From Bryobacterales bacterium (GTDB taxonomy: Bacteria > Acidobacteriota > Terriglobia > Bryobacterales > Bryobacteraceae), in the NCBI GenBank assembly GCA_963710155.1, contig CAVPZQ010000010.1:4358-68357 (forward strand): DNA of 64,000 nt, read 5' to 3'. Shown here piece by piece: positions 18,128-35,305 of this stretch (within the stretch, counting starts at the first letter, position 1; each line of letters opens with the position of its first letter). Below the pieces are notes generated by a model that made no database searches, was not told the DNA's origin, and worked only from the letters and a program-made list of their open reading frames with translations. The position numbers and the translations under genes were made by a program.

Positions 18128-18880
18128 CTAGACGTTCATTACCGCAGGGGCCTGATTCAAAACGGTGGGCTCGGGTGAGCCGCCTTGGTTCAGGAAATCG
18201 AGAACGCTGCCGCTGAAATTCGTGGCGCCCAATTGCGAGACCTGCACGCCGGAAAGAACTTTCATAAACAGGTTCGCGTATTGCGTACCCATTGCTTGCG
18301 GGTCGATCCCTTGACCCATGGATGGATACGCCGTGATCCGCTGTTGCACCATGGAAACAAAGTTATCGGTGATCGCCGCAGAGCCGCCGTTGGCCCAACC
18401 CTGGGTACCGCTGATGAACCCGTACATGTCGGAGACGGATTGCCCGATGAACTTCTGCATGTAGGAGTCCATGGAATCCGCCTGGAACGGCGTCATGCCG
18501 CTGGTGGGCGTGACGGTGGTGTACTGGTCCGGAGCGGGCGTGAAATAGGGCGCGGTGGAGGAGATGCTGTAGGCGGGCGTTTCTTGCGGTACATCGCTGG
18601 TGTTGACCGAAGGCGCTGCCGGACTGGTGGATGCAGACGCGACACTCGAAACCACGGGGTCTGCAATGGACGGCACTGGCACGGACGGAGCTGTCGTCGA
18701 CGCGGCGCCGAGAAAGTATTGGAGGAAAGAGTCCTGCAGGACTGCGGGACTGGAAGACGAATTCTCGCCCGCGGTCGCGAGTTGGTCAGCGAAGGAGGCG
18801 GCGGCGGCCGATGTGCTCGCGGGGTTGGTAAGGGGCAGCTCGGCAGGCGGCATCGTCAAGGGGTTGGTTGCAGTGATCAT
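18128..18880 (-). CDS. hypothetical Ser/Thr/Pro/Ala-rich protein (sigma-54 promoter upstream)
   Basis: 250-aa ORF. No signal peptide and no motif I recognise. GGAG lies 9 nt before the ATG, with a sigma-54-type promoter immediately upstream. Confidence 0.55.
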   Translation of the reverse strand: MITATNPLTMPPAELPLTNPASTSAAAASFADQLATAGENSSSSPAVLQDSFLQYFLGAASTTAPSVPVPSIADPVVSSVASASTSPAAPSVNTSDVPQETPAYSISSTAPYFTPAPDQYTTVTPTSGMTPFQADSMDSYMQKFIGQSVSDMYGFISGTQGWANGGSAAITDNFVSMVQQRITAYPSMGQGIDPQAMGTQYANLFMKVLSGVQVSQLGATNFSGSVLDFLNQGGSPEPTVLNQAPAVMNV

Positions 18881-18907
18881 GGGTTCTTTGACTCCGGCGA
18901 AGAAGAT

Positions 18908-18923
18908 TGCAATCCCGGGGCCA
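18908..18923 (-). promoter_or_regulatory. sigma-54-type promoter (-24/-12)
   Basis: The minus strand reads TGGCCC-CGGGA-TTGCA (GG-N10-GC spacing exact). The GC lies 28 nt upstream of the ATG at 18880. Confidence 0.65.
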
Positions 18924-19064
18924 TTGCGTTTGCGCGTTTAGAAAGCGTGGATCGTGACGCCGCAGCGAGTCGGGATTTTGGCAGATCGTCAAGTTTCCGC
19001 CGTTGCCACACGCTTTCCGCGCGGCAAAAGCGCCGCAAAAGCTTGGATATGAAGGGACGCGGGT

Positions 19065-19080
19065 TGGTTCGCGAATTGCA
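19065..19080 (+). promoter_or_regulatory. sigma-54-type promoter (-24/-12) of motAB-1
   Basis: TGGTTC-GCGAA-TTGCA with exact spacing. The GC lies 22 nt before the GTG at 19102, and GGAG sits at 19093-19096. Confidence 0.5.
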
Positions 19081-19101
19081 TTATGAGCGGTGGAGTGATT
19101 T

Positions 19102-19926
19102 GTGTCTTCGCCCACCACTGTTCCTACTGAACTGACCGCCGTACCGGGCGAAACTACCCGGCGAGTGCCCGTGGACCGATGGATCGTGGGCGGGATTGCG
19201 ATCGCGGTATTGACCGTTATCGCCGGGATCGCCTCCACTGGAGTCAGCCTCCGTTACTTCCTGCAGCCCACGGCAGCGTGGATCGTTCTGGGAGGAACCT
19301 GCGGAGTTACTTTGATCACGACGCCTCGCAAGGCCCTGATGCACGCCGTTCAGCGGGTGCTGGGACTGCTCCGCCAGCCTGCCACCGATCGCGAAGAATT
19401 GATGGACGAGATTGTTTCGTCGGTCAGGATCGCTCGCTTACAGGGGATGCTCGCGGTGGAACCGAGAATCAAGCAGCTCAACAATGCTTTTCTGCGCGAG
19501 ATGCTGGGGCTGGCGATTGACGTGAAGACCCGTGGCGAGTTTCAGAGCATTCTCGAAACCAAGGTGCGATTGCACGAGCGGCAGGGCGACGCGGACGCGA
19601 AAGTCCTGGAAGTGGCGGGGGGGTTCGCGCCGGCGATCGGCGTCATCGGCACGGTGGTGGGATTGATCGATGTGCTCCGCCAATTCTCCAACATGAACTC
19701 GGTGGCGTTCGGAATCGGAACCGCGTTCGTCTCGACCATGTACGGGTTGGCGCTGGCGAATCTGATTCTGCTCCCCGCCGCGCACCGTATTCGAGCGAGC
19801 GTGGCGGAGGCGTTTGAGATCGAGGAAATGATCGTCGAAGGCGGGCTGTGCCTGATCGACGGCACTCATCCTTCGCTGGTTCGCGAACGGCTGATCTGCT
19901 TTTTGCGGCAGGCGCCCAGCAAATGA
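19102..19926 (+). CDS. motA: flagellar stator protein MotA/PomA family (set 1)
   Basis: 274-aa ORF, MotA/TolQ/ExbB-type. Four TM segments and a conserved C-terminal channel region (GFAPAIGVIGTVVGLI..., TAFVSTMYGLALANLILLPAA). Confidence 0.8.
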   Translation: MSSPTTVPTELTAVPGETTRRVPVDRWIVGGIAIAVLTVIAGIASTGVSLRYFLQPTAAWIVLGGTCGVTLITTPRKALMHAVQRVLGLLRQPATDREELMDEIVSSVRIARLQGMLAVEPRIKQLNNAFLREMLGLAIDVKTRGEFQSILETKVRLHERQGDADAKVLEVAGGFAPAIGVIGTVVGLIDVLRQFSNMNSVAFGIGTAFVSTMYGLALANLILLPAAHRIRASVAEAFEIEEMIVEGGLCLIDGTHPSLVRERLICFLRQAPSK

Positions 19927-20576
19927 AGCCCGCGTATTATCAGAATCAACAAGGCGGACGCGATCGCTGGATGGTGAGCTATCTGGATGTGTTAACCATC
20001 CTGCTGATTCTGTTTGTAGCGATGGCGGCACAGACCCTGCAAAACTCGCAGAAGAAACCGGCTCCAGTGGCGGCTGTCGCACCCGTTGCGCCCGTTGCGC
20101 CGGTCGCGAAAGCGCCCGTAATGGAAGGACCCAGCGCGGCGATGACCGCGATCAAGCAGGACCTGGAAAAAAGCAATCTGGACGTGCAAGTAGATTCCCG
20201 CGGCGTGGTCGTCAGCCTGCCGCAGGCTCTGCTGTTTCAACCCGGCGCGGACAAAATCAACGCCGACGCGCTGCCGACGGTGCAGACGATCGGCGATGTG
20301 CTCAACAAGATCCCCAACAATGTGAGTCTGGTGGGGCACACGGATGCAACTCCCATTCACAACCGGCACTTCGCCAACAACTGGGAGTTGGCTGCGGCTC
20401 GCGGACTGCGTCTGCTGGAGCTCTTAAGCAGCCGTTATGGAATTGAAGAATCACGGCTCTCGGTGGCGAGCTTTGGCTCCTACGATCCTAAGAACTCGAA
20501 CGATACTCCGGATGGGCGCGCCAGCAATCGCCGCGTGGAAATCGTGATTCTAGATAGCTACGCGCGCAAGCCGTAA
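19923..20576 (+). CDS. motB: flagellar stator protein MotB (OmpA-like C-terminal domain, set 1)
   Basis: ATG at 19923 overlaps the motA stop (ATGA). N-terminal TM with the conserved Asp context (WMVSYLDVLTILLILFV). OmpA-like end (VGHTDATPI..., NWELAAARG, NRRVEIVI). Confidence 0.8.
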   Translation: MKPAYYQNQQGGRDRWMVSYLDVLTILLILFVAMAAQTLQNSQKKPAPVAAVAPVAPVAPVAKAPVMEGPSAAMTAIKQDLEKSNLDVQVDSRGVVVSLPQALLFQPGADKINADALPTVQTIGDVLNKIPNNVSLVGHTDATPIHNRHFANNWELAAARGLRLLELLSSRYGIEESRLSVASFGSYDPKNSNDTPDGRASNRRVEIVILDSYARKP

Positions 20577-22633
20577 TAGTTCGCGGTCGACGTGATGTCG
20601 GGGCCATGCTCATTGCGCAGCAGGCTCAGCAAGTCCAGCGGCCGTGTGGGATTCGACGTCAACCCGACCGCAGAGGGATTCGCGACCTTGCGTAGACGGC
20701 CCGACTCCACCACATATTTCTGATTGTCGGCGCCTTGTAGCAACTCGCCTTCTCGGGCACCCACTTCAGCACTCAGGCGGTCAAAGGACGCCCCGTAGCC
20801 GTCCATGATTCCGGTATCGAAGCCTTGCAGGCCGCCGGTGGGCATCTGGTTGCGATGGATACTCCACAACAGATGTTCGCGCGCAGTGATGGCGCCGTCC
20901 CAGCTCAGGCTTTCCGCCATCGCACGCCCGTTGTTCGCGAGCCGTTGCCGGAGCTCGGGGATACGGACCAGGCCATCGAGCGCCACTGCGAAGTCAGCGA
21001 TGACGCGCGGACGCGCCACGATCGCAGTGTGGCCGTCGATTGCGTAACCTTCTGTCCCGTAGGGCGTGGTGATTACGGCCGTGCCGCAGGCCATGGCTTC
21101 AATGGGTGGCAGCGGGCAGCTTTCGTACCACGAAGGGCACAACGCGATATCGCTTTCGGCGTAAAGACGGCTCAGGGCATCGTGATCGAGCGTCCCGTGA
21201 AACTGGTAGGGCGCGAGTTCATTGTTGGGTCCGAAAACCGGGTGCTCGAAACCGTAGACGTGCCACGCGATCTTGTTGGGATAGCGCTGCATGAGCTGTG
21301 CCATGGCGGGCACCGCGTCCTGGAAACCCTTCCACTTTTCGGGGCGGCAGTAGGTGACGACGCGGATCACGCCGTCCTGCGCGCTCAACTTCGGGCGCGG
21401 GTGAAATTTGGCGGTGTCGACTCCGTTTTGCACCACTGGAACAATTTCGTTAAAGCGGCGGCGGAACTCGCCGGCGAGCCAGCTCGAATTCGCGATGCGG
21501 TACATCGGCATCTGAAACGTATTGCGGCACAGCATCTTGATCAGCGGATTGCCTTGCAAGCCCGAAGCGGGGTTGGCATCCGAAGCGAAAAACACTTCGT
21601 CATAATGTTGCGGGAAGTGAACCGGCTTGCCTTTTCCGGATTGCCAGGCGGGGATGATGCTTTCCCAGTTGGCGGCGATGATCAGGTCGGCTTCGGGGAT
21701 CGCTGGCGTTAGCAAGTGCGTGTAGGCCAAGAAGAAGCGCAACTCACCTAGAAAATCCCGCGGCGTTTTATCCAGAAAATGATACGGCAGAGATTCGCGT
21801 CGGGCTGCGGCGTCGTAGTGAATGGGCACTTTGAAATCGAGTCCCGGGAATGGTTCATCCTCGAGCCACATGAACTGCGGCCAGGTAGTGAGCGAGACTT
21901 CATGTCCCCGCGCCTGCAGGCGGCGCGCGTATTCTAGGGTGCTGGCGGCGCTTCCGGTGCGGACTCGCGCCGTGGGGCCCAGCAAAAAACTCATGGACAA
22001 GTGCTGCGGTGCGTGCACGGCGGGAGCTTGAACCGTCTTCACGACAGGCTGCATCGGAGTGGAAGTTCTCTTCGCCACGCCAACCACGACGGCAAAGCCG
22101 TTGCCAACTTTGTCATCGGTGTCCTGAACATGCAGGATGTTCCAGCCCAGCCAGTGAATCAGCTCGACAAAATCTTCAGTGATCCACACCGAGCAGTGTT
22201 CGGCGAGAGTTTCCGGCTGTTTGCCAGTCTCGTGCCGTTCGATCAGCTCGGCCAGAGTGGAGCGCGGACGCTCCTTGTCGAAAGTGCGTTCCTTGTGCGG
22301 AGCAATGATGTAAAGATAACCGCCGGGCTTGACCACGCGATACCACTCGCGGAGTGCCTTAATAGGATCGGGAAAGTGCTCGATGACGTGCGAGCTGATG
22401 ACGAAATCGACGCTGTTGTCTTCGAGCGGCAGTTGGTCGCCAGGCGACACGATATCCACAGGCAGAGAGGTCCCGCATAGCTTGACCTCTTCCTGCTTGA
22501 AACAGGTCAGCTCATTTGTGTTGTCGACGTTGCGAGTCTTCAGACCGAACGAGTTGTGCGCGGAGCCGCCGATTTCAAGCCCATCGAGGCCGTCGAGCAG
22601 CTTGTGAGCGAGTGCGCTTTCTTTGAATTTCAT
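20558..22633 (-). CDS. SAM-dependent methyltransferase :: GT4-type glycosyltransferase fusion protein
   Basis: 691-aa ORF. The N-terminal ~190 aa are a class-I MTase (LEIGGSAHN, VDFVISSHVIEHFPDP, VVKPGGYLYI). The centre and C-terminus are GT-B/GT4-like (RPEKWKGFQDAV..., ESCPLPPIEAMACGTAVITT). Confidence 0.75.
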   Translation of the reverse strand: MKFKESALAHKLLDGLDGLEIGGSAHNSFGLKTRNVDNTNELTCFKQEEVKLCGTSLPVDIVSPGDQLPLEDNSVDFVISSHVIEHFPDPIKALREWYRVVKPGGYLYIIAPHKERTFDKERPRSTLAELIERHETGKQPETLAEHCSVWITEDFVELIHWLGWNILHVQDTDDKVGNGFAVVVGVAKRTSTPMQPVVKTVQAPAVHAPQHLSMSFLLGPTARVRTGSAASTLEYARRLQARGHEVSLTTWPQFMWLEDEPFPGLDFKVPIHYDAAARRESLPYHFLDKTPRDFLGELRFFLAYTHLLTPAIPEADLIIAANWESIIPAWQSGKGKPVHFPQHYDEVFFASDANPASGLQGNPLIKMLCRNTFQMPMYRIANSSWLAGEFRRRFNEIVPVVQNGVDTAKFHPRPKLSAQDGVIRVVTYCRPEKWKGFQDAVPAMAQLMQRYPNKIAWHVYGFEHPVFGPNNELAPYQFHGTLDHDALSRLYAESDIALCPSWYESCPLPPIEAMACGTAVITTPYGTEGYAIDGHTAIVARPRVIADFAVALDGLVRIPELRQRLANNGRAMAESLSWDGAITAREHLLWSIHRNQMPTGGLQGFDTGIMDGYGASFDRLSAEVGAREGELLQGADNQKYVVESGRLRKVANPSAVGLTSNPTRPLDLLSLLRNEHGPDITSTANYYGLRA
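22071..22633 (-). repeat. duplicated methyltransferase module, copy A (pairs with 24562..25124)
   Basis: Direct repeat of about 563 bp with no indels. I counted about 60 mismatches in 553 aligned nt by eye. Similarity stops exactly at the start codon. Confidence 0.85.
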
Positions 22634-22722
22634 TGTGTTGTCAATCCGTCCTTTGTGAAGACCCTACGCGTAAACAACTAGAACATCGGCAGAATCGCCT
22701 TAGAACTGCAATATGGCGGGCG

Positions 22723-24303
22723 TCAGCTGTAGTACGAAAACTTCTGACTGCCGCGGTAAAACGCTTCTTCCTCTGCGGGGACAATTCTGTCCTTGTACCA
22801 GGGCAAATGCCGGCAGGTGTATTTTCCACCGACTCTGACGCCCCTCAAGTGGTCCACCGGATCGAAGAAGCGCTTGTTGTATACGGCGAAGGTGGTGTCG
22901 ACGGCGGCGCTATAAACCTCGTCGCCGGTGCTGGTGAAGCCGACCGGATTCTTCCAGAACTGGGCTTCCCACTCCCAGATCTGATATTCCGCGGCGCCGA
23001 TGTGGAACTTTTCGTGGCGCATTTTGGACCAGTCGGATATGTTGAGAGCCAGTCCGGCTTTGCCTACGCGGTGTTTCTCGGTAAGCGAGATCAGTTCGTA
23101 GATGAAATCTTGCGACAGCGACGGGTTCAGTTCCAGGTCCGGATCGGTAATACAAAAATAATCCGGCAATGAGAACAGGTTTTTCGGATCCAGAAATAAG
23201 TTGTGCGGTCCTTTGTTCTCTTCCAGGCGGATAACGGAGAGATCGGGACTGCCCTGCGACAGGTAGTCGAGCAGCGGCGGAAAGGTCGAAGCGTTGTCTA
23301 TGGCGATGATCTCTTCGAAACCAAAGCGGCGTAGTTGCGAGACCATGCTCTTCAAGTACGTCACGGAGTTGAATACCGGAATCAGAACCGGGATGCGTTT
23401 CTGGAAGTGGCCGCCCAACGATGAAGACGGTTTGGTGCGCACGCTGACGGGAGCCTGCTGGGGCGCGGGCGCGGCCATGCAAGATCGCAATGGTGATTTT
23501 GCATCGAACAATTCCGACGCGATCCGCGGTATCAAGGCAGCTTTCACGAATAGGATGTTGAACTGATGGTCTCCATACTCGCGGTCGCGGGCGATCGGGA
23601 CAAAGCCTTTCGCGATCAGCTCACGCGTGATGTAGGCGCTGTCCTTCTGTTCTTTCCAAAACTCGAAGTTTTCGACTTCGATCAGGACGGCCACTGCGCT
23701 CGCCAGGGCTTTTTCGGCGCCTTTCACGACTTTGTCAGCGGCGCCCTCCGCGTCGATCCAGAGAGCGATGCGCTGCTCCGCTATATCAAATCCTTCTTCG
23801 GCGAGGAACCCGTCCAGAGTGGTCCCGTCCACATTGAATTCTTCGTAAATAGCGTCCTCGTTTCTGAGGAGCAGCGATGTCTTGCCAGTGGTCTTGGGCT
23901 CATTGATATGACCCGGAAGCACCACGCCCTTGTCGTAGTATCGCGACAAGGTTCGCGGCGCGTAGATCTTGACCGGACCCACGGAGTCCGCGATCGCGCG
24001 GTTGAGATATTTTACGCCGGCCGCCGAAACATTCGCTTTGTGAAGCGTGAAGATTTCGGGGTTGGCTTCGAAAGAATACACCAAAAGCCTGGGAAATCTT
24101 TGTTTGGCGGCGACGGCGCAGCCTCCATCGAACGCTCCGATATCGAAGAACACAGTAGGGCGGAGGCGCTCCAGGACGTCCCACAGAAGAGACGTCAATC
24201 TTGCGTTGCCGGCCGGGCCTTCTTCGCCGCGGTCTAGCATGTTCAGATTCGCCATCAGCAGGTAATCGATCGCCAGCTTGCTGTTCTGCGTCTCGGTGGT
24301 CAT
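22723..24303 (-). CDS. FkbM-family methyltransferase :: GT2-type glycosyltransferase fusion protein
   Basis: Start set at the ATG at 24303 (AGGAG upstream, 8 nt after the stop of the preceding gene) rather than the ORF-track 24492. N-terminal FkbM-like part (VFFDIGAFDGGCAVAAKQ..., SFEANPEIF). C-terminal GT2-like part (VLIPVFNSVTYLKSMV..., EIIAIDNAST, DPD). Confidence 0.7.
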   Translation of the reverse strand: MTTETQNSKLAIDYLLMANLNMLDRGEEGPAGNARLTSLLWDVLERLRPTVFFDIGAFDGGCAVAAKQRFPRLLVYSFEANPEIFTLHKANVSAAGVKYLNRAIADSVGPVKIYAPRTLSRYYDKGVVLPGHINEPKTTGKTSLLLRNEDAIYEEFNVDGTTLDGFLAEEGFDIAEQRIALWIDAEGAADKVVKGAEKALASAVAVLIEVENFEFWKEQKDSAYITRELIAKGFVPIARDREYGDHQFNILFVKAALIPRIASELFDAKSPLRSCMAAPAPQQAPVSVRTKPSSSLGGHFQKRIPVLIPVFNSVTYLKSMVSQLRRFGFEEIIAIDNASTFPPLLDYLSQGSPDLSVIRLEENKGPHNLFLDPKNLFSLPDYFCITDPDLELNPSLSQDFIYELISLTEKHRVGKAGLALNISDWSKMRHEKFHIGAAEYQIWEWEAQFWKNPVGFTSTGDEVYSAAVDTTFAVYNKRFFDPVDHLRGVRVGGKYTCRHLPWYKDRIVPAEEEAFYRGSQKFSYYS

Positions 24304-24311
24304 GCCAGCTC

Positions 24312-25124
24312 CTAGACGTGGCCTTGCGCCATGTCCTTCAGCATTTGCTTCTCGACGATCAAATCGGCGATCGCACGGCGCAACTGCGCGTTTTCTTTTT
24401 GCAGCTTGTTCAACTGATCCGGATCGGGGCTCACGAAGGAGGCCGCTGGAGAAGACTGCGCAGCGGGCGCAAAGCGCGGCGGATTCGCCCATGCAGGCTG
24501 CAGCGGGGAGGCGGACGGCTTCGAGACGCCGGCCGCAACGTTCAACTTGGGAGCGTTACCCTTCGTCACGCCGACCACGACGGTAAAGCCGTTGCCAACT
24601 TTGTCATCGATGTCCTGGACATGCAGGATGTTCCAACCCAACCAGTGAATCAGCTCGACAAAATCTTCGGTGATCCACACCGAGCAGTGTTCGTTAAGGG
24701 TTTCAGGCTGTCTGCCTGTCTCGTGCCGTTCAATCAGCTCAGCCAGAGTGGAGCGCGGGCGTTCTTTATCGAAAGTGCGTTCTTTGTGCGGCGCAATGAT
24801 GTAGAGATACCCACCGGGTTTGACCACGCGATACCACTCGCGAAGCGCCTTGATGGGGTCCGGAAAGTGTTCGATGACATGCGAGCTGATGACGAAATCG
24901 ACGCTGTTTTCTGCTAGGGGCAGTTGGTCGCCAGGCGAAACGATGTCCACCGGCAGGGACGTGCCACACAGCTTGATCTCTTCCTGTTTGAAGCAAGTCA
25001 GCTCATCGGTGTTGTCGACGTTCCTAGTCTTCAGCCCGAACGAGTTGTGTGCGGAGCCGCCGATTTCAAGTCCGTCGAGGCCGTCGAGCAGCTTGTGAGC
25101 GAGTGCGCTTTCTTTGAATTTCAT
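24312..25124 (-). CDS. SAM-dependent methyltransferase with C-terminal coiled-coil tail
   Basis: 270-aa ORF. The first ~186 aa are nearly identical (9 substitutions) to the N-terminus of the 691-aa protein. The tail is LNKLQKENAQLRRAIADLIVEKQMLKD. Confidence 0.75.
   Translation of the reverse strand: MKFKESALAHKLLDGLDGLEIGGSAHNSFGLKTRNVDNTDELTCFKQEEIKLCGTSLPVDIVSPGDQLPLAENSVDFVISSHVIEHFPDPIKALREWYRVVKPGGYLYIIAPHKERTFDKERPRSTLAELIERHETGRQPETLNEHCSVWITEDFVELIHWLGWNILHVQDIDDKVGNGFTVVVGVTKGNAPKLNVAAGVSKPSASPLQPAWANPPRFAPAAQSSPAASFVSPDPDQLNKLQKENAQLRRAIADLIVEKQMLKDMAQGHV
24562..25124 (-). repeat. duplicated methyltransferase module, copy B (pairs with 22071..22633)
   Basis: See copy A. The first ~73 nt of the two CDSs differ at only 2 positions. 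Confidence 0.85.
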
Positions 25125-25143
25125 GGTTGCTTTTCCTTTTTAA

Positions 25144-26229
25144 TCAAATGGCTTCGAGGACGGGCGACAGTTCCTCAACCTGGCTGGTGCAAGGGCGGTC
25201 GCCGGCGAGAACCTGTTCCCATAGCTCAACGTTCTTTTCGATATTGCGGTGCGTCAACACCCAATCGCGCTGTTCGCGATATAACTTGGTCCGATCCGCT
25301 TGCAGAACTTCTTCCAGCTTCCGCTTCCAAGACTCGCGATTATTCTTCGCCGTAATCGGGACCTCGGTGGAATACGGAACCACGTGCGACGCCAGCGTGA
25401 TCGCACCCGACATGGCGTATTCGTAGTATTTAATGCAGCTCTTATGACGATTGAACTGATCATCGAGCAGGGGCGCGATGCCGACGTCCAGTTTCAAATC
25501 GCAGACTTTTCGCGGATGCTGCTCAAGCGGGACGTTGGGATGGAACTCGTAGCGGATGCCCGACAGCTTATCCATGAAATGCTTGATGGATCTGCCCAGC
25601 GGCGTATGGAACAAAGCCTGGCCCCAGCGCGCTTCGAGTACGGCCATCAATTCTTCAAGAGTCGATTCCTGGCAAATTCCCTGAAGCACAAAAGTGAACG
25701 GAATTTTTTTCTGCACTTCGCGGACCGCATCCAGCGCGACGGCCAGATCCAGAAAGTGCGTGGGGCTTCCGGTCCATCCGATGCGGGCTTCCCCGCTCCT
25801 GGGTTCGACCGTCCATTCCTCCGGATCAACACTATTGGGAATCACCGTGACGTTGGGATTCCACTGACGAAGATAGCCGGCCAACGTGTCCGTCGTAGTG
25901 GTCACGACGTCCGCGGCGCGCAGCAGGAATTCATAAAGCGGCAGCCGCGCTTGCACAGCTTTGTAGTTCAGGTTCTCAGGGGGGACCAGATCCAGCGCGT
26001 CGTCGGTATCGAAGACTACTCGGATTCTGTTTTTCTTGCACCATTCGACGATTTTTACCGCTTGCGGATAGTGCGCGCGGTAGAGAACCAGAACGTCGGG
26101 CGCGTTATAGCTCTCTTGATTCGAGAGAATTTCGACTTGGTGCCCGCGTTGGCGCAGATATTTAGCGGGAATCGCGCCGCGCCATTTGTAGCAGCCGCTT
26201 TGCGTCTCGGTGAGCAAACAAATATTCAA
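25144..26229 (-). CDS. putative glycosyltransferase (GT-B-like)
   Basis: 361-aa ORF. The TTG start overlaps the fliJ stop (TTGA). The N-terminus is typical of GT-B enzymes (MNICLLTE...RGAIPAKYLRQRGHQVEIL; VVFDTDDALD; IGWTGSPTH). The family assignment is tentative. Confidence 0.55.
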   Translation of the reverse strand: MNICLLTETQSGCYKWRGAIPAKYLRQRGHQVEILSNQESYNAPDVLVLYRAHYPQAVKIVEWCKKNRIRVVFDTDDALDLVPPENLNYKAVQARLPLYEFLLRAADVVTTTTDTLAGYLRQWNPNVTVIPNSVDPEEWTVEPRSGEARIGWTGSPTHFLDLAVALDAVREVQKKIPFTFVLQGICQESTLEELMAVLEARWGQALFHTPLGRSIKHFMDKLSGIRYEFHPNVPLEQHPRKVCDLKLDVGIAPLLDDQFNRHKSCIKYYEYAMSGAITLASHVVPYSTEVPITAKNNRESWKRKLEEVLQADRTKLYREQRDWVLTHRNIEKNVELWEQVLAGDRPCTSQVEELSPVLEAI

Positions 26230-26687
26230 GCAGGTCTCTCCTCACTCTCGGCGTTCGAGCGCGCCCAATTTGAAATGAAGGATTCAGCGGCGGTGTTTTC
26301 GAGCTCGCGATCGTGCAAATAAGTCCAGGCCTTCTTACGCCGCTCTTTGAGATTCTCCAGGACTTTACAGTCTTTGCGGGCTTTCAGCAGTCGCTTGCGT
26401 TGTTCGGCGATGTGGATTTCCAGCTTCTTGCGGGCCGCAACCAAAGACACTTTTTCGCCGCGGATGCGCAACTGAAACGCCGCCAGGGCACGAAATTCAG
26501 TGGCTTCGACCAAGGGCCGGCCCAACACATTCATTTCCGCGTTCAACTGATCGGCGGTCAACGTGTTCTCGCGATGTAGAACTTCCGCCAGCTTATTTTG
26601 AATCGTGGAGAGCTTTTCTTCTTCCGTGCGCATCTGCAGCTCGCGCCACTCGAGAACTCGTTGCAACGGAAATTGGAACGCCTTCAT
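26226..26687 (-). CDS. fliJ: flagellar export chaperone/stalk protein FliJ
   Basis: 153-aa coiled-coil ORF directly after fliI. FliJ-like N-terminus FQFPLQRVLEWRELQ. Confidence 0.75.
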   Translation of the reverse strand: MKAFQFPLQRVLEWRELQMRTEEEKLSTIQNKLAEVLHRENTLTADQLNAEMNVLGRPLVEATEFRALAAFQLRIRGEKVSLVAARKKLEIHIAEQRKRLLKARKDCKVLENLKERRKKAWTYLHDRELENTAAESFISNWARSNAESEERPA

Positions 26688-28033
26688 GAGAGTTCCTTAG
26701 CCAGCGTAAACAGCCGGCTCCGCGTCTCGTCAAGCGGCGCGTAGGCCTCAGAGTCCTGCCGCAGGAATTCCAGAATCTGCGGACGAACGCGGATGCTGCG
26801 ATCCAATACCGGATTGGCGCCTTGCACATGCGCGCCCAACTGAATCAAGTCGGCTGATTGATGATAAGTCGACAGCGCTTCGCGAATGCGCCGGTTGGCG
26901 GACAGTTCTTCCGGCGTAATGACTTTGTTCGAAAGACGACTGACGGAGTTCAAAATATCGATGGCGGGATAGTGTCCGGACGAAGCCAGGTCTCGCGAGA
27001 GTATGAAGTGCCCATCCAGAATGCCCCGCGCCGCGTCGCAAATCGGTTCGTTGAAGTCGTCACCTTCGACCAACACTGTGAAGAAGCCCGTGATCGATCC
27101 TGTTCCGAAGTTGCCAGCGCGTTCAAAAATTTTGGGTAGTAGCGCAAAGACGGAAGGCGTGTAGCCCTTCTGGCTAGGAGGCTCTCCGGCAGCCAATCCG
27201 ATTTCGCGCTGCGCCATGGCCAGGCGCGTGACCGAATCCATGACCAACAGCACGTCGGCGCCTTGATCGCGGAAATATTCTGCCGCCGCTAAGGCCACAT
27301 AGGCGGCGCGGATGCGCAGCGGCGCGGGGCGATCGGAGGTAGCCACAACCACGACGGAGCGCTTCATCCCTTCCGGCCCAAGTTCGTTTTCGAGAAACGC
27401 TTTGACTTCACGATTGCGCTCGCCGATCAAAGCGATCACGCTGACTTGCGCCGAGTTCTTACGCGACATCGCGCCCAATAGAGTGCTTTTGCCGACGCCG
27501 CTGCCGCCGAAAAGCCCGATTCTCTGGCCTTTTCCGCAGGCGAGCAGGCTGTCGATGGAGCGAACACCGGTGACCAGGCGATCCGTAATGTGTTTGCGCT
27601 GAAGAGGGTTGGGAGGCGGCGCGTACAGCGGATAGGTGCTGGACGATTCGATCGGTGGACCGCCATCCATAGGCTGCCCGAAGCCATCAAGAACACGGCC
27701 CAGTAATCCCGGCCCTACCGCGAGCTGAGCATCCTGCGAACGGGCAATCACGCGGCTGCCTAGTTGTAAACCATCCGGCTCATCGAGTGGCATCGCCAGG
27801 ACGCGGCCGTTGCGGAAGCCGATGACCTGCGTGCGAATACTGCGCCCATTCGCGGCCTGAATTTCGCAAAAATCTCCAATCGCCGCCGCTGGACCCTGCG
27901 ATTCAATCAATAGGCCTACGGTGGCCGTTACCTGACCGCTCCACGGCAAGAGATCTATGCGATCGAGATCGACCATGTAAGGAGCGAGCGCTACTTTTTC
28001 TAAAGTTTCCATTTCTGAAATAGCCCTGGTCAT
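26684..28033 (-). CDS. fliI: flagellum-specific ATPase FliI
   Basis: 449 aa. Walker A GGSGVGKSTLL, Walker B VLLVMDSVTR, F1-ATPase-like fold motifs. Confidence 0.95.
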   Translation of the reverse strand: MTRAISEMETLEKVALAPYMVDLDRIDLLPWSGQVTATVGLLIESQGPAAAIGDFCEIQAANGRSIRTQVIGFRNGRVLAMPLDEPDGLQLGSRVIARSQDAQLAVGPGLLGRVLDGFGQPMDGGPPIESSSTYPLYAPPPNPLQRKHITDRLVTGVRSIDSLLACGKGQRIGLFGGSGVGKSTLLGAMSRKNSAQVSVIALIGERNREVKAFLENELGPEGMKRSVVVVATSDRPAPLRIRAAYVALAAAEYFRDQGADVLLVMDSVTRLAMAQREIGLAAGEPPSQKGYTPSVFALLPKIFERAGNFGTGSITGFFTVLVEGDDFNEPICDAARGILDGHFILSRDLASSGHYPAIDILNSVSRLSNKVITPEELSANRRIREALSTYHQSADLIQLGAHVQGANPVLDRSIRVRPQILEFLRQDSEAYAPLDETRSRLFTLAKELS

Positions 28034-28719
28034 CGGTTGGCGGGCACCCGGCGCAGGCGGTCCGCGAAGCCGCGTTCAATTTCGCGAAGCTGCGATTCTA
28101 TCGACGCATCCAAATTGCCGTGCGCGGTTTCGAAGATTACGTCGCCGCATTGCATGGAAGAATCCGCCACCAGCTCGACTTTCTGTGAATTTGAGAAGCG
28201 CTCCAGGGCGTTGCGGATGGCGTTTTCCTGGTCCGGGTGCACGCGGATGCGGCAGAGATCCCGGGATTGAAGTTTTTCGAGAGCCACGCGAATCACGCCT
28301 TCAATGGACTCTGGCTCAAGTGTCAATTCGCGATGCAGCACGCGCCGCGCGATGGAAATGGCAAGTTTGAGAAGATCGCCTTCCGCTTCCGACCGAATGC
28401 GCGAACGCAGCGAAGAAAGCGTGGCCAAGCTCTTGCCAAGTTGTTCAAGCACCGGCTGCAGCTCAGCTTTAGCCTGTTGCAGCCCTACGTTTTTTCCTTC
28501 GGCGAAGCCGCGCTGATAGGCTTCTTGCTCGATACGCTCGCGATCCTGCTGGAGCAGGTGATTCTCTTGGGGCGAGGGTTCCGAAAGAACCTCCTTCGCA
28601 GCGATCGGATTAGGTTTGGTTCTCGGAGGGAGCGCGGTTGTACTGGTGCGCCACGCAATCGGCGTGACCACCGCTTGTTCGGCGTCGCGCAGAATTCTAG
28701 ACGACGTATTGGTCATCAC
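28030..28719 (-). CDS. fliH: flagellar assembly protein FliH
   Basis: 229 aa between fliG and fliI. FliH-like central region (EAYQRGFAEGKNVGLQQAKAEL). Confidence 0.8.
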   Translation of the reverse strand: MMTNTSSRILRDAEQAVVTPIAWRTSTTALPPRTKPNPIAAKEVLSEPSPQENHLLQQDRERIEQEAYQRGFAEGKNVGLQQAKAELQPVLEQLGKSLATLSSLRSRIRSEAEGDLLKLAISIARRVLHRELTLEPESIEGVIRVALEKLQSRDLCRIRVHPDQENAIRNALERFSNSQKVELVADSSMQCGDVIFETAHGNLDASIESQLREIERGFADRLRRVPANR

Positions 28720-29722
28720 CGCCGCCTCCCTTCAAGCTCAGGACACCCTCGGTTTCGAGCTGCCGGAGGACCGCGATCATGGCCTGCTGTGCCGCTTCCA
28801 CCTCCCGAATTTTGATCGGCCCCAAGGCTTCCATGTCTTCAAGCAGCATGGCAGCGCCGCGTTGCGACATGCCTTTCAAGAGATGCTGCCGCAAATCCTC
28901 GTTGGTTCCCTTGAGCGCAGTGGTGAGCTGACGCCGGTCGGCGCGCGCCAGCAGTTCTTTGACGCCGTTGGCGTCGAGCGCCATCAGATCGTCGAACACG
29001 AACATCTTCTGACGGATGGAATCCATTAGCTCCGCATTCTGTTCGCCGATTTGAGTGAGGATTTCGCTGCTCAATTCGGTATCGAGTTGATTGAAGATTT
29101 CCGCGACAGCACGGGGGCCGCCGGAGGGCTGGCGTTTCATCTCGCCCAGCGACTTAAGTTTCTGCCCGATGACCGCGGAGATTTTGCCCACGACGATGGG
29201 TGAAATTTTGTCGAGTTTGGCGATGCGTAGAGCGATGTCCGGCCGCGCCGACGGATCCATCGAAGCCAGAACGCCGGCTGATTGCGAAGGATCGAGCTGC
29301 GACAGCACAATCGCCACAGTCTGCGGGTGTTCGCTTTTTACGAAGCGGGCTAAAAGTTGTGGGTCGACGTTTTGCAATTGCCGGGTGCTGCCCATCTCTC
29401 CGTGCGGCCCAGGCAACTGGTCCAGATGTTTTTTGCTTCCTTCAGGACCAAAGGCGCTGGTGAGAATCCGCTTGACGTAGGCCACGCCTCCGGGGCCAAC
29501 GCGGGCCAAGTCGGAAGTTGCATCGCGAAATTCTTCCAATACCGATTCCGCTTGAGCCGCGGTGACCGAGGAAAGATCGGCAATGGCTCCGCTGACGGTC
29601 TGCACTTGATCTTCGTTCAACTGCTTCAGTAATCCGGCGGAAGCCTGATCGCCCAAGGCGATCAACAGTACGGCCGCCTTTTGTGCCCCGGTGAGGGTCC
29701 CGGAGCCACTAGGAGTCGTCAT
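28697..29722 (-). CDS. fliG: flagellar motor switch protein FliG
   Basis: 341 aa. LTGAQKAAVLLIALG N-terminus, MFVFDDL motif, C-terminal torque helix region. Confidence 0.95.
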   Translation of the reverse strand: MTTPSGSGTLTGAQKAAVLLIALGDQASAGLLKQLNEDQVQTVSGAIADLSSVTAAQAESVLEEFRDATSDLARVGPGGVAYVKRILTSAFGPEGSKKHLDQLPGPHGEMGSTRQLQNVDPQLLARFVKSEHPQTVAIVLSQLDPSQSAGVLASMDPSARPDIALRIAKLDKISPIVVGKISAVIGQKLKSLGEMKRQPSGGPRAVAEIFNQLDTELSSEILTQIGEQNAELMDSIRQKMFVFDDLMALDANGVKELLARADRRQLTTALKGTNEDLRQHLLKGMSQRGAAMLLEDMEALGPIKIREVEAAQQAMIAVLRQLETEGVLSLKGGGGDDQYVV

Positions 29723-29728
29723 TACGAA

Positions 29729-31399
29729 CTAGACCTGCCCTTCTTTAAGCCAGCCGCGGAGCACTCCGGCGCAGATCTCCGCGTCTTTTTGAGCGGTCTC
29801 GCGGAGTTGCGTGGTGAGAGTCTCCAGGCGCGCCGGGGCGAGCGTGTGCAGGTTTGCCGATGCGGGAGTGGAGGGCGCCCACGTATCTTGCGCGGCCGCG
29901 GCGGAGCGCGATAATTCCTGGCCATGGCCGGCAGCAGACGCTTCCGGCAGAGCTTGCGTCATTTGAACCTTGGCGGCGGCAGCCGAACTTTTCCTCATTC
30001 GCGTGACCAGGAAACCGCATCCGGCCAGCAGCACGACCACGACGGCCCCTAAAATCGCCAGAAGTTTTGGGTTGGCTTTGAGCTCCTCGATAGGAGATTT
30101 TTGTTTGGGAGCCGCGCCCCCCGGCGGTAGCGCCGTCAGCGGAGGATCCAGATTTAGAGTCGATTCAAAAGGCAGCGCCTCGACGAACAAAATGTCGCCA
30201 CGATCCATATTGAATCCGGCCGTGGCCGCCACCAGGTCGTGAATCACCTTCATGCGCTCGGGAGACGGCGGAACCAGAACGCGCTTCGCGTTGGCGCCGG
30301 TGCCTTCCCAGTGGGCTTCGTGATCGATCAGCACCGATACCGACAGCCGTTTGATCGAGCCCTGCGGGAGAACCGTCCGCTTAACGGTGCGGCTGGTTTG
30401 ATAGTTGACGTTTTCCGTTTTGCGAGAAGTTCCGCCTCCGGTGACGGCAGGTTTCGGTGCCGCGTCCGGAAGATTCGAGGCGGTTCCCGGGATGCCCGCG
30501 ATGGCGCGAGTGGGAGTGGAAGTGTCTTCGGTGGTCTGCGAACTCACCATGGCGGATTTGGTGGGATCGAAACTTTCCTCGCTCTGCTCGCCGCTGGTTA
30601 AATCGGTGTCCGCGGAGACGGACGCGCGGAAGCGGCCGGCGCCGACTAGCGGCTCGAGCGTCGCTTCCAATTTAGATGTGAGATCCTGCTCTACTTTGTG
30701 GCGGTATTCGAGTGCCGCTTCCGATGAATCGCCGCCCCCGGAGCTGTCGACGCGCTTGGCGCGATTCAGTAAATTGCCGCGCATGTCCAACACCGATACC
30801 GATTCCGGGGCCAGGCCCTCGACCGCGCTCGAGATCAAATGCGTGATGGCGGGAATGGCGGTTTCGGGTAACGACGCGCCGGCGCGGATTTTGATCAGCA
30901 CGCTAGCTTTCGCCGGCTGCTGCGCTTCGCTGAAGACCGATTCTTTCGGAAAAGTGATGTGAACGCGCGCTTGCTCCACCTCGGAAATCGCCATGACGGA
31001 ACGCTCGAGTTCACCCTCCACCGCTCGGCGGTAGTTGATGTGCTCGGCGAAGTCGGTCATACCGAAATTTGTTTTGTCGAAAATCTCGAAGCCGATTCTT
31101 CCGCTCTTGGGCACACCGGCGGCGGCCAGTTCCAGGCGCAGCTCAGCCACTTTTTCTTCGGGCACCGAAACCGTGGTGCCGTTGTTGGACAAACGGTATT
31201 CCGTGCTCCCCTCTTTCAGTTTTTGAATGACCACAGCGGCGTCTTCCGGCGCCAGCGTGGTGTACAGCGGGCGGAATGCGCTTTCCTTTTCCCAGTGCAC
31301 CAGGCTGTAGAGGCCAGCCGAAATCAGGACGGTCGCAACCAGGATGGTCCAGCGTTGCGAGGTCGACAACATTGCTAACAGTCGTTTGAGTTGTTCCAT
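29729..31399 (-). CDS. fliF: flagellar MS-ring protein FliF
   Basis: 556 aa. N-terminal TM, YscJ/FliF ring-building motifs (PLYTTLAPEDAAVVIQKL), second TM near the C-terminus. Confidence 0.95.
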   Translation of the reverse strand: MEQLKRLLAMLSTSQRWTILVATVLISAGLYSLVHWEKESAFRPLYTTLAPEDAAVVIQKLKEGSTEYRLSNNGTTVSVPEEKVAELRLELAAAGVPKSGRIGFEIFDKTNFGMTDFAEHINYRRAVEGELERSVMAISEVEQARVHITFPKESVFSEAQQPAKASVLIKIRAGASLPETAIPAITHLISSAVEGLAPESVSVLDMRGNLLNRAKRVDSSGGGDSSEAALEYRHKVEQDLTSKLEATLEPLVGAGRFRASVSADTDLTSGEQSEESFDPTKSAMVSSQTTEDTSTPTRAIAGIPGTASNLPDAAPKPAVTGGGTSRKTENVNYQTSRTVKRTVLPQGSIKRLSVSVLIDHEAHWEGTGANAKRVLVPPSPERMKVIHDLVAATAGFNMDRGDILFVEALPFESTLNLDPPLTALPPGGAAPKQKSPIEELKANPKLLAILGAVVVVLLAGCGFLVTRMRKSSAAAAKVQMTQALPEASAAGHGQELSRSAAAAQDTWAPSTPASANLHTLAPARLETLTTQLRETAQKDAEICAGVLRGWLKEGQV

Positions 31400-31420
31400 G
31401 AACGGATTCGATCAGGTGAC

Positions 31421-31723
31421 TTACATCGGCATTTTCATGATTTCCTGATACGCGGAAACCACTTTGTTGCGAACTTGCATGAACATTTGAAACTCGAGAT
31501 CGGCTCGCTGCGTGGCGAGAATCGTGGAATGCAGGTCGCCGCCGTCTCCGGAAAGAAACTGCTCCACGCTCTTCGAAGCGCTGCTGCGCGAATTTTCTAC
31601 TTCACCGATGGCGCTGCTGAAAATATCCTTGAAGGAAGAAGTTCCACCGTCGCCAGCCGCGGGGGCGGCCACATCGGGCTGTATTTGGCTAAGAGACGAA
31701 ATTCCAGAAATATTCAGGGACAT
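31421..31723 (-). CDS. fliE: flagellar hook-basal body complex protein FliE
   Basis: 100 aa. Conserved C-terminal block LHSTILATQRADLEFQMFMQVRNKVVSAYQEIMKMPM. Confidence 0.9.
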   Translation of the reverse strand: MSLNISGISSLSQIQPDVAAPAAGDGGTSSFKDIFSSAIGEVENSRSSASKSVEQFLSGDGGDLHSTILATQRADLEFQMFMQVRNKVVSAYQEIMKMPM

Positions 31724-31732
31724 AGCGGGACT

Positions 31733-32167
31733 CTATTTGAACAGATCCAGAGAGCGTTGAATCATATCTTTTACCGCGGACACAGCCGAGACGTTGGCCT
31801 GATAGCCGCGCGACGCGCCCAGCAGGTCGACCATATCTTCGGCGGGATTCATGCGCGGGTAGGCCACGTAGCCGTCTTTGTCGGCGTCGGGATGCCCCGG
31901 CAGATAGCGCTTTTCAGGATCGCGTTGATCGGTGATCACTTGAGAAACGCGCACTCCCGTGCCCGAGCCCACTTCGGATTCGAACATCGACGAGAAATCC
32001 GCCGCCGAAGGATCTGAGGTGAACACCGCGTCTTTGCGCCGGTAGGGACCGCCTTCCGGAGTCCGCGTGGTATCGGAGTTGGCCAGATTTTCCACCAGTA
32101 GCTCCGTGCGCTGGCGCTGCGCCGACATCCCCGAGGCGCTGATCGATAATGCGGATAACAGGCTCAT
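31733..32167 (-). CDS. flgC: flagellar basal-body rod protein FlgC
   Basis: 144 aa. ISASGMSAQRQRTELLVENLANSDTTRT N-terminus and SRGYQANV C-terminus. Confidence 0.95.
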   Translation of the reverse strand: MSLLSALSISASGMSAQRQRTELLVENLANSDTTRTPEGGPYRRKDAVFTSDPSAADFSSMFESEVGSGTGVRVSQVITDQRDPEKRYLPGHPDADKDGYVAYPRMNPAEDMVDLLGASRGYQANVSAVSAVKDMIQRSLDLFK

Positions 32168-32170
32168 ACG

Positions 32171-32512
32171 CTACTTGCTTTCCTGAATCGCCGTTTTCGC
32201 CGCATTCAGCTCGGCGCGCGCAAAATTAGAGGCGATCGAGAAGCGCATGGCATTTTCCGCCAGCAAGCGGGCTTCGCGATCGATATTGACATTGTTGCCG
32301 TCGGGCTTACTGGCCAAACCCTCCGGTTCGACAACCGCGGGTTGAGTGGAATCTTCGCCGTCGAGCGCGTGTTGAAACTCCGCGCGGAAATTAATGTCCT
32401 GGGTGTGATAGCCGGGCGTGTCGGCGTTGGCGATATTGGAAGCGACCAGTTTCTGACGGGCGCTCAACAAACTCATGTAGTGTTCGGAGTTCAGAGCCAG
32501 ACCTTGGAACAT
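32171..32512 (-). CDS. flgB: flagellar basal-body rod protein FlgB
   Basis: 113 aa. SNIANADTPGYH motif. Confidence 0.9.
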   Translation of the reverse strand: MFQGLALNSEHYMSLLSARQKLVASNIANADTPGYHTQDINFRAEFQHALDGEDSTQPAVVEPEGLASKPDGNNVNIDREARLLAENAMRFSIASNFARAELNAAKTAIQESK

Positions 32513-32526
32513 GGTGCACTCTGAAT

Positions 32527-32542
32527 TGCACGCCGTGTGCCA
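32527..32542 (-). promoter_or_regulatory. sigma-54-type promoter of the flgB operon
   Basis: The minus strand reads TGGCAC-ACGGC-GTGCA, a near-consensus. The GC lies 15 nt upstream of the flgB ATG. Confidence 0.7.
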
Positions 32543-32625
32543 ATGCTTAACTGATTGATTTCGCTATCGCCGTACTGGCTGGGATAGGAGAGAATTCGAC
32601 GCTTTCGTCGGATCTCTGACGCTGC

Positions 32626-32925
32626 TTACGCGTCCAGATGGAGCACTTCGGTGTTGCCGCGGCTGGGCGTGTAAGCACTTTCGCGGCTGAGCAGAATCAG
32701 CTTGCGCTGCGTGTGTGAGCGTGCCACCAGTGTGGCCGTGCGCGCCCACTCAAAAACTTCGCTCACTTCCGTGGCGATCGCGAGCCGGGCATCGTCGGAG
32801 GTGGCCGCGTTCCAACAAGCTTCGACGTCGCAGCGGTACGCTTCGAGAAGCCGTTCGGCTTCCGCAAACGCCTCCGCCGAGACAGCCTTGCGAAACAGAT
32901 CAACTGCCGTTCTGGGCGATTGCAT
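32626..32925 (-). CDS. hypothetical helical protein downstream of fliD (FliT-like by position only)
   Basis: 99-aa ORF on the same strand, overlapping the fliD end by 26 nt. I recognise no motif; placement is analogous to fliT. Confidence 0.45.
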   Translation of the reverse strand: MQSPRTAVDLFRKAVSAEAFAEAERLLEAYRCDVEACWNAATSDDARLAIATEVSEVFEWARTATLVARSHTQRKLILLSRESAYTPSRGNTEVLHLDA

Positions 32926-34255: not shown

Positions 34256-34300
34256 GAAATCCTCCTTCGCTGAAACTAAACTGCCCGGCGCAATGCTGAC

Positions 34301-34342
34301 CTAAAAGGAAACTGGGCCGTTCTCGGTAAAGAATCGGCCCAG
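34301..34342 (-). terminator. Rho-independent terminator after fliC
   Basis: On the minus strand: CTGGGCCG, a 15-nt loop, CGGCCCAG (perfect 8-bp GC-rich stem, 34312-34342), followed by TTTCCTTTTAG. It lies 28 nt after the fliC stop. Confidence 0.7.
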
Positions 34343-34370
34343 CTCGAATTAAACATTAGCCCCGCTGCGA

Positions 34371-35210: not shown

Positions 35211-35278
35211 GTTTTTTCCTTTGCCTTAAAGTTTCCGGCGTCTCGCCGAACCCGACTGTTTTCTCAGCGGTGTTATTC

Positions 35279-35305
35279 ATGTCGCAGACACCCACTGAAA
35301 TTTTA
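35279..35305 (-). promoter_or_regulatory. sigma-28-type promoter of fliC
   Basis: The minus strand reads TAAA-N15-TGCGACAT, with an A/T-rich TAAAAC TAAAAC stretch just upstream. The leader is about 60 nt. Confidence 0.7.

Follow-up and report, generated by a model that had tools for sequence, protein, structure and literature searches.

Flagellin glycosylation has been well studied in pathogens, and to our knowledge it is nearly unknown in Acidobacteriota, a phylum that ranks among the most abundant in soil; no literature on flagellar glycosylation in Bryobacterales or Acidobacteriota was found. Here, a candidate island of glycosyltransferase (GT) and methyltransferase (MT) genes is analyzed, which lies in a stretch of 64,000 nucleotides (nt) from a Bryobacterales bacterium (assembly GCA_963710155.1, contig CAVPZQ010000010.1, positions 4,358 to 68,357), hereafter the window, and comprises four genes, GT1, MT2, MT-GT3, and MT-GT4, following fliJ at the end of the flgB-fliJ export and basal-body operon. 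Comparative genomics has revealed flagellin glycosylation islands in Enterobacteriaceae and Geobacillus (PMC4875605, PMC5109656), and glycosylation of flagellin with such enzymes has been shown experimentally in Clostridioides difficile, Pseudomonas syringae, and Pseudomonas aeruginosa (PMC5207246, PMC3927599, PMC11833859). The islands of Enterobacteriaceae and Geobacillus resemble the present one in combining, within flagellar loci, GT2 and GT4 enzymes with S-adenosylmethionine (SAM)-dependent and FkbM MTs, in containing GT::MT fusions, and in being highly variable among strains, with a UDP-galactopyranose mutase (UGM, encoded by glf) in some of them, as in certain relatives of the present locus. 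The C. difficile enzyme GT2 (PF00535 + PF08241) adds rhamnoses to flagellin; methylation was proposed from its MT domain, and according to the authors it may stop chain extension (PMC5207246). Thus, the term "non-canonical" used for this locus in a preliminary description overstates its novelty, since islands of GT2/GT4 and SAM/FkbM MTs and MT::GT fusions were already on record (PMC4875605, PMC5109656, PMC5207246).

The island is probably a module for cytoplasmic protein glycosylation dedicated to the flagellum, and its function is best read as the attachment of an O-linked, methylated glycan to flagellin or to other axial proteins, a reading in which we place moderate confidence as to both target and glycan. 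The four genes lie on one strand in close succession, and the ORFs (open reading frames) and junctions are as first described: the stop codon of fliJ (26226-26687, - strand) and the TTG start of GT1 overlap by 4 nt (TTGA at 26226-26229), a GAGGAG Shine-Dalgarno sequence lies 8 nt upstream of this start, and the gaps that follow measure 19 nt (GT1 to MT2), 8 nt (MT2 to MT-GT3), and 89 nt (MT-GT3 to MT-GT4). A Shine-Dalgarno-like sequence is present at all four starts, that of MT-GT3 being the ATG at 24303, with AGGAG; a longer ORF for this gene, starting at 24492, was rejected, as it overlaps MT2 and the homologues match from the ATG at 24303 instead. GT1 appears to be translationally coupled to fliJ, as judged from the 4-nt overlap, and it has the attributes of a member of the flgB-fliJ operon, namely the same strand, no intergenic space, and a position conserved across species.

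This conservation was evaluated by tblastn synteny with one genome per species, which gave 36 Bryobacterales-type loci with a GT1 identity of at least 49%. GT1 is directly preceded by fliJ, with an overlap or a few nt between them, in 28 of these loci, and gene calls on large contigs show the identical 4-nt overlap. Another four loci hold GT1 elsewhere in flagellar clusters: the order is fliC-fliD-GT1-flgB in L037, GT1 lies between fliC/fliD and motAB in L041 (so that it is adjacent to fliC in both), it abuts flhB-fliR-fliP-flgE in L019, and FliG-like and FliM-like genes are nearby in L029. L019 was initially taken as a GT1 locus lacking flagellar genes, which a wider query set overturned by revealing flhB-fliR-fliP-flgE alongside. 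The other four loci lie on truncated or short contigs; one of these, L032, is an additional paralogue from a genome with a fliJ-linked GT1 as well. In the loci where GT1 is 63-73% identical, its conservation is second only to that of FliI (81-84%) and above that of FliF (59-77%), FliG (55-70%), FliH (54-65%), and FliJ (44-58%). GT1 is the conserved core of the island and, by its synteny, a vertically conserved chromosomal gene. Moreover, among more distant relatives in Acidobacteriota (31-37% identity), six of nine loci have fliC-fliD or motAB at a distance of about 2-9 kb. In L047, L049, L055, and L057, GT1 is loosely adjacent to fliC, at 2-6 kb. Some Bryobacterales also carry, in the locus of the canonical GT1, a further GT1-like paralogue that is very divergent (23-24% identity), either directly downstream of GT1 (L062, 2542-3351) or about 2 kb upstream, next to a GT4 gene (L028, 1519-2388).

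The GT-B fold of GT1 was assigned by modeling. The AlphaFold2 model, built with 30 homologues, has a pLDDT of 90.8, a pTM of 0.87, and the two Rossmann domains of a GT-B enzyme, and a Foldseek search of the PDB with it gave as best matches the retaining GT4 enzymes MshA, BshA, and PglA (TM-score 0.61-0.70, 11-15% identity, E from 1e-11 to 6.5e-13, the lowest for MshA). The closest structural neighbor overall is a GT of an uncultured Caudovirales phage (TM-score 0.81-0.86, root-mean-square deviation 2.4 Å), and GT1 matches the PHROG 7162 profile, "glycosyltransferase", over its full length (residues 3-340 on positions 4-304 of 309; E 7.4e-34, 118 bits). Pfam matches cover the N-terminal half only (Glyco_transf_4, 33 bits; Glyco_trans_4_4, 32 bits), and a sequence search of the PDB returned only spurious matches to flavivirus NS5 methyltransferase (E ~0.2). 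Among 40 diverse members, R17, D76-D77 (within a DTDD motif of the N-terminal domain), N132, G154, G184, F259, and K267 are invariant, and H158, D161, D248, N260, K263, S264, E270, and G275 nearly so. The first Glu of the GT4 EX7E motif is lacking: E270 is near-invariant, position -8 is His or variable, and the family has the motif FN.xKSxIKxYEY instead. Nevertheless, the conservation pattern is that of an active enzyme, for which glycosyltransferase activity is predicted. A representative search gave 9092 clusters at E ≤ 1e-3, most of them stand-alone proteins of ~350 amino acids (aa) without a Pfam match, the others being modules in proteins of 1200-2300 aa that also contain Methyltransf_11, GT4, GT2, and sometimes tetratricopeptide repeat (TPR) domains. 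The 273 close homologues, of ~360 aa and 64-92% identity, belong to Bryobacteraceae or Bryobacterales wherever they are named, and a repeat of the large protein search with a diverse GT1 profile recovered essentially the same Bryobacterales set, with no informative names.

With regard to the other three proteins, Pfam and NCBIfam confirm the domain types reported earlier, as the model does for the GT1 fold. MT-GT3 exceeds the thresholds for Methyltransf_21 (44.3 bits; cut-off 22.7), TIGR01444 (56; 37.7), and Glycos_transf_2 (26.8; 23.3), while MT-GT4 has an N-terminal Methyltransf_11 module (58 bits) and a C-terminal part above the gathering thresholds of Glyco_transf_4 (37.2 bits; cut-off 28.5) and Glycos_transf_1 (66.4; 26.4). 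None of the four proteins has a transmembrane segment or a membrane-compatible hydrophobic stretch, and all four enzymes look soluble. Neither the island nor the window contains a flippase, a polymerase, an ABC transporter, or an initiating phosphoglycosyl transferase. Direct glycosylation of proteins in the cytoplasm fits with these two absences. Pfam searches (E ≤ 0.01) gave no Maf (MptE-like) domain and no TPR fused to a GT in the four proteins and, as previously stated, Maf, nonulosonic-acid (pseudaminic or legionaminic), and TPR-GT markers are absent from the window.

The association of the GT1 family with flagellin genes recurs outside Acidobacteriota. Giant GT1-containing enzymes adjoin flagellin genes in all four proteobacterial-type loci sampled (L091-L094). 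In L091, from Azoarcus sp. TTM-91, the enzyme belongs to a classic flagellin glycosylation island with aminotransferase, acyl-activation, FkbM, further methyltransferase, and TPR-GT41 genes; in L092, NeuB-type nonulosonic-acid genes precede it and fliC-flaG-fliD-fliS-fliT-fleQ follow; in L093 it lies between flgL and two flagellin genes, and in L094 a flagellin gene follows it directly. Two modules of the Azoarcus protein WP_169149050.1 align with GT1, at 29% (E 5e-27) and 27% (E 2e-23) identity. In addition, GT1-family proteins of 34-39% identity are encoded on phage contigs (L095, 8001-9056; L096, 8001-9068), in one of them within a structural module made up, in this order, of terminase, portal, capsid, lysozyme, holin, GT, head-tail attachment protein, and tube protein genes, and in the other beside TOD1_MUCI70-type and Methyltransf_11 genes, which hints that the phage relatives of GT1 glycosylate virion proteins.

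The island had been regarded as one flagellar unit, which it is not. Apart from the core gene GT1, its members MT2, FkbM::GT2 (MT-GT3), and MT::GT4 (MT-GT4) form, by comparison of gene order, a swappable cassette limited to close relatives. Loci of type A (GT1, MT2, FkbM::GT2, MT::GT4, and convergent motBA) comprise the window, L007, L008, L017, L040, and 13 metagenome contigs, in which MT-GT3 is 85-92% identical. Type B (L005/L038, L010, L011, and L035) has GT1, a flavoprotein of 470-490 aa, a GT4 gene with or without the fused MT, and motBA, and in type C (L009 and L039) GT1 is directly followed by motBA. More distant genomes have only GT1, or else motAB, at the end of the operon. The flavoprotein of type B (for instance L005, 8491-9969) is a UGM, whose best PDB match is the Trypanosoma cruzi enzyme (E 4e-134); its closest solved relatives are of the eukaryotic type (T. 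cruzi, Aspergillus fumigatus) and not the short bacterial Glf. A UGM gene also lies beside a GT4 gene in L004, L006, L021, L030, and L062, and in L004 the pair formed by MT::GT4 and UGM is ~4 kb from flaG/fliS. Since UGM partners GT4 in these relatives, the GT4 domain is probably a galactofuranosyltransferase, and the sugar handled by MT-GT4 would probably be galactofuranose; the window has no UGM gene.

The MT module of MT2 and that at the N-terminus of MT-GT4 are paralogues, 90% identical in nt and ~95% in aa over ~565 nt, with the homology beginning exactly at the ATG. Their dN/dS of 0.045 indicates strong purifying selection on both predicted modules. In the window and in L075, the two copies of one genome (90%) are closer to each other than orthologues from different genomes are (~85%), which suggests that they are homogenized by gene conversion. 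Other genomes carry this module in fusion with hexapeptide acetyltransferase domains (P0223-P0232). The coiled-coil tail of MT2 (24312-24440, - strand; LNKLQKENAQLRRAIADLIVEKQMLKDMA) is 62-91% conserved among type-A relatives; its interpretation as a remnant of the leucine zipper of an IS3-type transposase OrfA was dropped, the sole match, to positions 52-75 of HTH_Tnp_1, being non-significant (E 0.17).

The sigma-54 promoter proposed upstream of flgB was re-examined by comparison across species. The number of sigma-54 patterns in the window is at chance level (eight sites at ≤1 mismatch) and uninformative on its own. However, all 34 orthologous loci that could be aligned have the element at position -30 relative to the flgB start, with ≤1 mismatch in 20 of them and the GG/GC retained in the remainder; FlgB identity in these loci is 58-96%, and the sequence around the element has diverged while GG-N10-GC is constant. 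On account of this phylogenetic footprint, the predicted promoter is accepted as genuine, and its position bears out the earlier proposal; a gene for a sigma-54 activator is also present in the window. Next to the -24 element, on its upstream side, the 34 loci also share the motif AAATCA(A/G)-N4-6-TTAG. The -12 GC ends 15 nt before the annotated flgB start, and the interval has no Shine-Dalgarno sequence (32513-32600, - strand), so that the mRNA of flgB may be near-leaderless or its start misplaced. As for promoters and terminators between fliJ and the island, of which the preliminary description had noted none, promoter-like and terminator-like matches over 19000-35500 are at the level of shuffled sequence (5 versus 5.0 and 21 versus 20.9) and by themselves uninformative, and the 89-nt spacer folds worse than its shuffles (z = +1.69). 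From the gene spacing we infer that the island is co-transcribed with flgB-fliJ from the sigma-54 promoter.

It is unlikely that only GT1 is on this transcript and that the cassette, or at least MT-GT4, has its own unrecognized promoter and is expressed independently of flagellar assembly. The 89-nt spacer is indeed the sole sizeable gap in the island, its counterpart varying from ~40 to 95 nt among relatives, and the cassette is swappable, with MT::GT4 solitary elsewhere, but the only sigma-70-like match in this spacer, a weak one (9/12, at 22659-22632), cannot serve MT-GT4 because its -10 hexamer overlaps the ATG; moreover, the spacer has no terminator or stable structure, the gaps of 19 and 8 nt are too small for promoters, and all of the genes are on the same strand.

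As the last translationally coupled gene of the sigma-54-driven operon, GT1 would be made together with the export apparatus and, therefore, could already be in place when the axial proteins are made and exported. In other systems, glycosylation of flagellin precedes both its binding by the chaperone and its export (PMC4065374). GT1 would act in the cytoplasm on flagellar export substrates, flagellin most probably, by transferring a sugar from a nucleotide sugar to Ser/Thr of the unfolded or chaperone-bound protein prior to type III export. It is favored as the priming enzyme because it is the only flagellum-linked GT in type-C and many other genomes. The cassette would then be a lineage-specific extension for decoration of the glycan, in which the GT2 and GT4 domains may append further sugars, galactofuranose probably being the one added by GT4, and the two paralogous SAM-MT modules and the FkbM module may O-methylate it. 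Each fused MT domain would act on the most recently attached sugar, and methylation could then cap the chain, a role suggested for C. difficile GT2.

Alternatively, the enzymes could be dedicated to the flagellum with a target other than flagellin, such as the rod, the hook, FlgK/L, the FliD cap, or a component associated with the export gate or the stator, or GT1 could double as a regulator resembling GmaR of Listeria, to all of which we assign a low probability. GT1 belongs to the early basal-body and export operon rather than to the fliC region, is coupled to fliJ, and sits in an island bracketed by motAB, and expression from an early operon would suit early substrates. In addition, Ser and Thr together make up 27% of FliD and 27% of FlgE versus 22% of FliC. 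The preliminary description pointed to a Ser/Thr-rich center of the flagellin, which was not found: this segment (aa 126-195) is only Gly-rich (17%), and its Ser+Thr content of 21% equals that of the rest of the protein (19-23%) and is not discriminating. Nonetheless, well-documented flagellar glycosylation in the literature is all on flagellin, the distant relatives and the giant GT1-containing enzymes adjoin fliC, and, with respect to a GmaR-like function, Pfam detects no DNA-binding or anti-repressor-like domain in GT1.

Several observations weigh against the proposal that the island glycosylates flagellin or other axial proteins. The island is not adjacent to fliC, since ~8 kb, occupied by the flgB-fliJ operon and fliD, separate this gene from GT1, and domain searches found no nucleotide-sugar biosynthesis genes in the window. 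GT1 itself lacks a match to Glycos_transf_1 or any other C-terminal Pfam GT model as well as the first Glu of EX7E, so that its activity is assumed, and neither a TPR nor any other obvious domain for substrate recognition is present in it. Its giant relatives also hold GT2 domains, where priming on flagellin may reside, P. aeruginosa FgtA being GT2-type (PMC11833859), and the family extends to phages, to candidate-phyla (CPR) bacteria, and to archaea, none of which have bacterial flagella. Finally, orthologues unlinked to flagella, which had been named as evidence that would count against a flagellar role, were found in part: in L003 and L006, flagellar genes are absent from the 10 kb around MT::GT4 and UGM, and FkbM::GT2 homologues of 47-67% identity are solitary genes in unrelated contexts (L079, L081, and L082, no flagellar gene within 10 kb). 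This concerns the accessory genes and does not extend to GT1. The contexts in L079 and L082 are neither flagellar nor polysaccharide loci and do not discriminate between the explanations.

The notion that the product is a non-flagellar methylated glycoconjugate, either a cytoplasmic polymethylated polymer resembling the mycobacterial methylmannose polysaccharide or an envelope glycan, and that the flagellar position reflects co-regulation or hitch-hiking, draws on the L003 and L006 loci, on the suitability of three GT and three MT modules without export genes for an intracellular methylated polymer, and on the methylmannose-polysaccharide mannosyltransferase of M. hassiacum (7qsg), which is among the best PDB sequence matches of the GT4 domain and a structural match of GT1 (rank 37), but it is improbable, since GT1 is strictly kept after fliJ with a 4-nt overlap in ~30 species, adjacency to flagellin genes recurs independently in Proteobacteria and other Acidobacteriota, and the similarity to 7qsg is only at the generic GT4 level (E 6e-10).

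Within the favored reading, namely glycosylation of axial proteins by GT1 and the cassette, a more far-reaching idea can be put forward tentatively, with less than an even chance of being right: GT1 might found an unrecognized class of protein O-glycosyltransferases for self-assembling filament and virion proteins, distinct from Maf, FlmG, GmaR/CD0240, and FgtA, hard-wired into the export operon of Bryobacterales, fused into the giant enzymes of proteobacterial flagellin islands, and carried by phages. Such an enzyme might act at, or couple to, the export gate through co-translation with FliJ.

The island is enclosed in a flagellar supercluster of ~42 kb that extends from motA (19102) to flhB (60524), and the coordinates of the relevant features are collected in the table. 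The flgB-fliJ operon, whose junctions are overlapping or very short, lies upstream on the same strand, and motB converges on MT-GT4 with a 19-nt overlap of the 3' ends, so that flagellar genes bracket the island on both sides; relatives of types A, B, and C share this convergent arrangement of motAB.

Table. Features of the island and of its flagellar surroundings, in window coordinates.
Feature	Position	Strand	Basis
GT1, soluble GT-B glycosyltransferase, 361 aa, orphan PHROG 7162-like family	25144-26229	-	Pfam, AlphaFold2, Foldseek, PHROG
MT2, 270 aa, class I SAM methyltransferase module, Pro/Ala-rich linker, and short coiled-coil tail	24312-25124	-	Methyltransf_11, 57.8 bits
MT-GT3, 526 aa, FkbM methyltransferase::GT2 glycosyltransferase fusion	22723-24303	-	Pfam/NCBIfam
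MT-GT4, 691 aa, SAM methyltransferase::GT4 glycosyltransferase fusion	20558-22633	-	Pfam
MT module copy A (in MT2)	24560-25124	-	paralogue of copy B
MT module copy B (N-terminus of MT-GT4)	22069-22633	-	paralogue of copy A
flgB-flgC-fliE-fliF-fliG-fliH-fliI-fliJ export/basal-body operon	26226-32512	-	Pfam/NCBIfam, tblastn synteny
Predicted sigma-54-type promoter element TGGCAC-N5-GTGC upstream of flgB	32528-32542	-	1 mismatch to consensus; cross-species conservation
fliC, 279-aa flagellin, most likely predicted substrate	34371-35210	-	Flagellin_N, Flagellin_C
fliD, filament cap, alternative candidate substrate	32900-34255	-	FliD_N, FliD_C
motA-motB/D stator pair	19102-20576	+	MotA_ExbB, MotB_plug+OmpA, NF006541 MotD
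Second stator pair	36927-38738	+	
Sigma-54 activator gene	46657-47985		
ORF of 452 aa between flgM and flhF	42220-43578	+	no significant Pfam match
ORF of 316 aa just upstream of motA	18185-19135	+	no significant Pfam match
ORF of 123 aa in the flgN position	41097-41468	-	no significant Pfam match
ORF of 99 aa overlapping the fliD 3' end, fliS position	32626-32925	-	no significant Pfam match
ORF of 632 aa before flgE	53484-55382	+	faint FliK (Flg_hook) match, E 0.009
Two adjoining, partly overlapping ORFs	5375-6842	+	thymidylate kinase matches (both)

The flagellar cluster also contains a second stator pair; identity between the two pairs is 37% for MotA and 31% for MotB, the pair next to the island fits best to the MotD-type model NF006541, and both pairs are conserved in relatives. 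Four ORFs without significant Pfam matches lie in or at the edge of the cluster and could be lineage-specific flagellar components or non-genes, and the ORF before flgE probably encodes a divergent hook-length control protein. The two thymidylate kinase ORFs, with DUF2252, Ppx/GppA, and CHAD genes as neighbors, are unrelated to the island.

If the proposed function holds true, an order-wide GT would be expressed with the export apparatus and not with flagellin, which bears on when and where the substrates are glycosylated, and a GT-B family without a Pfam model, the PHROG 7162-like one, would gain a function. Swappable cassettes (MT/GT2/GT4, UGM/GT4, or none) would explain strain-level diversity of the flagellar surface in soil bacteria, a diversity that would matter for recognition by phages and predators. 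The practical value is modest until the glycan is demonstrated.

In comparison with known systems, the islands of Enterobacteriaceae and Geobacillus are located between fliC/fliD and fliA or by the flagellin genes, usually with nucleotide-sugar pathways, whereas the present one, although embedded in a flagellar cluster in the same manner, occupies the end of the flgB-fliJ operon, away from fliC and without a sugar-biosynthesis gene in the window, and its constant member is an orphan GT-B and not a GT2, GT41, or Maf enzyme. The type B modification of C. difficile (GT1, GT2, and GT3) is alike in the sequential action of soluble GTs on flagellin and in having one enzyme that combines GT and Methyltransf_11 domains, but its GTs are all of the GT2 family and are encoded directly downstream of fliC; here, an MT is fused to GT4, FkbM is fused to GT2, and the conserved enzyme is a GT-B. 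The phage GTs of PHROG 7162 are the best match of GT1 at the family level, yet they are annotated only as moron or auxiliary genes, whereas GT1 is a chromosomal gene of a flagellar operon. MshA, BshA, and PglA share with GT1 the GT-B fold and the conserved Glu of the C-terminal nucleotide-sugar motif and differ from it in most of their sequence, in the Glycos_transf_1 match, and in the first Glu of EX7E. Placing GT1 in the Pseudomonas Fgt family was considered and rejected, as FgtA is described as a GT2 plus phosphotransferase (PMC11833859). The Azoarcus-type giant GTs, none of which was found to be biochemically characterized in the literature, unite one or two GT1-like modules with Methyltransf_11, GT4, and GT2, that is, the repertoire of the island in one polypeptide beside fliC; unlike the island, each of them is one protein of 1250-2250 aa, encoded in an island adjacent to fliC where sugar-biosynthesis genes are also found. 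The locus differs from the known islands in the lack of sugar-pathway genes in the window, in the order-wide GT-B core from an uncharacterized family, and in the position of the island at the end of the early flgB-fliJ operon.

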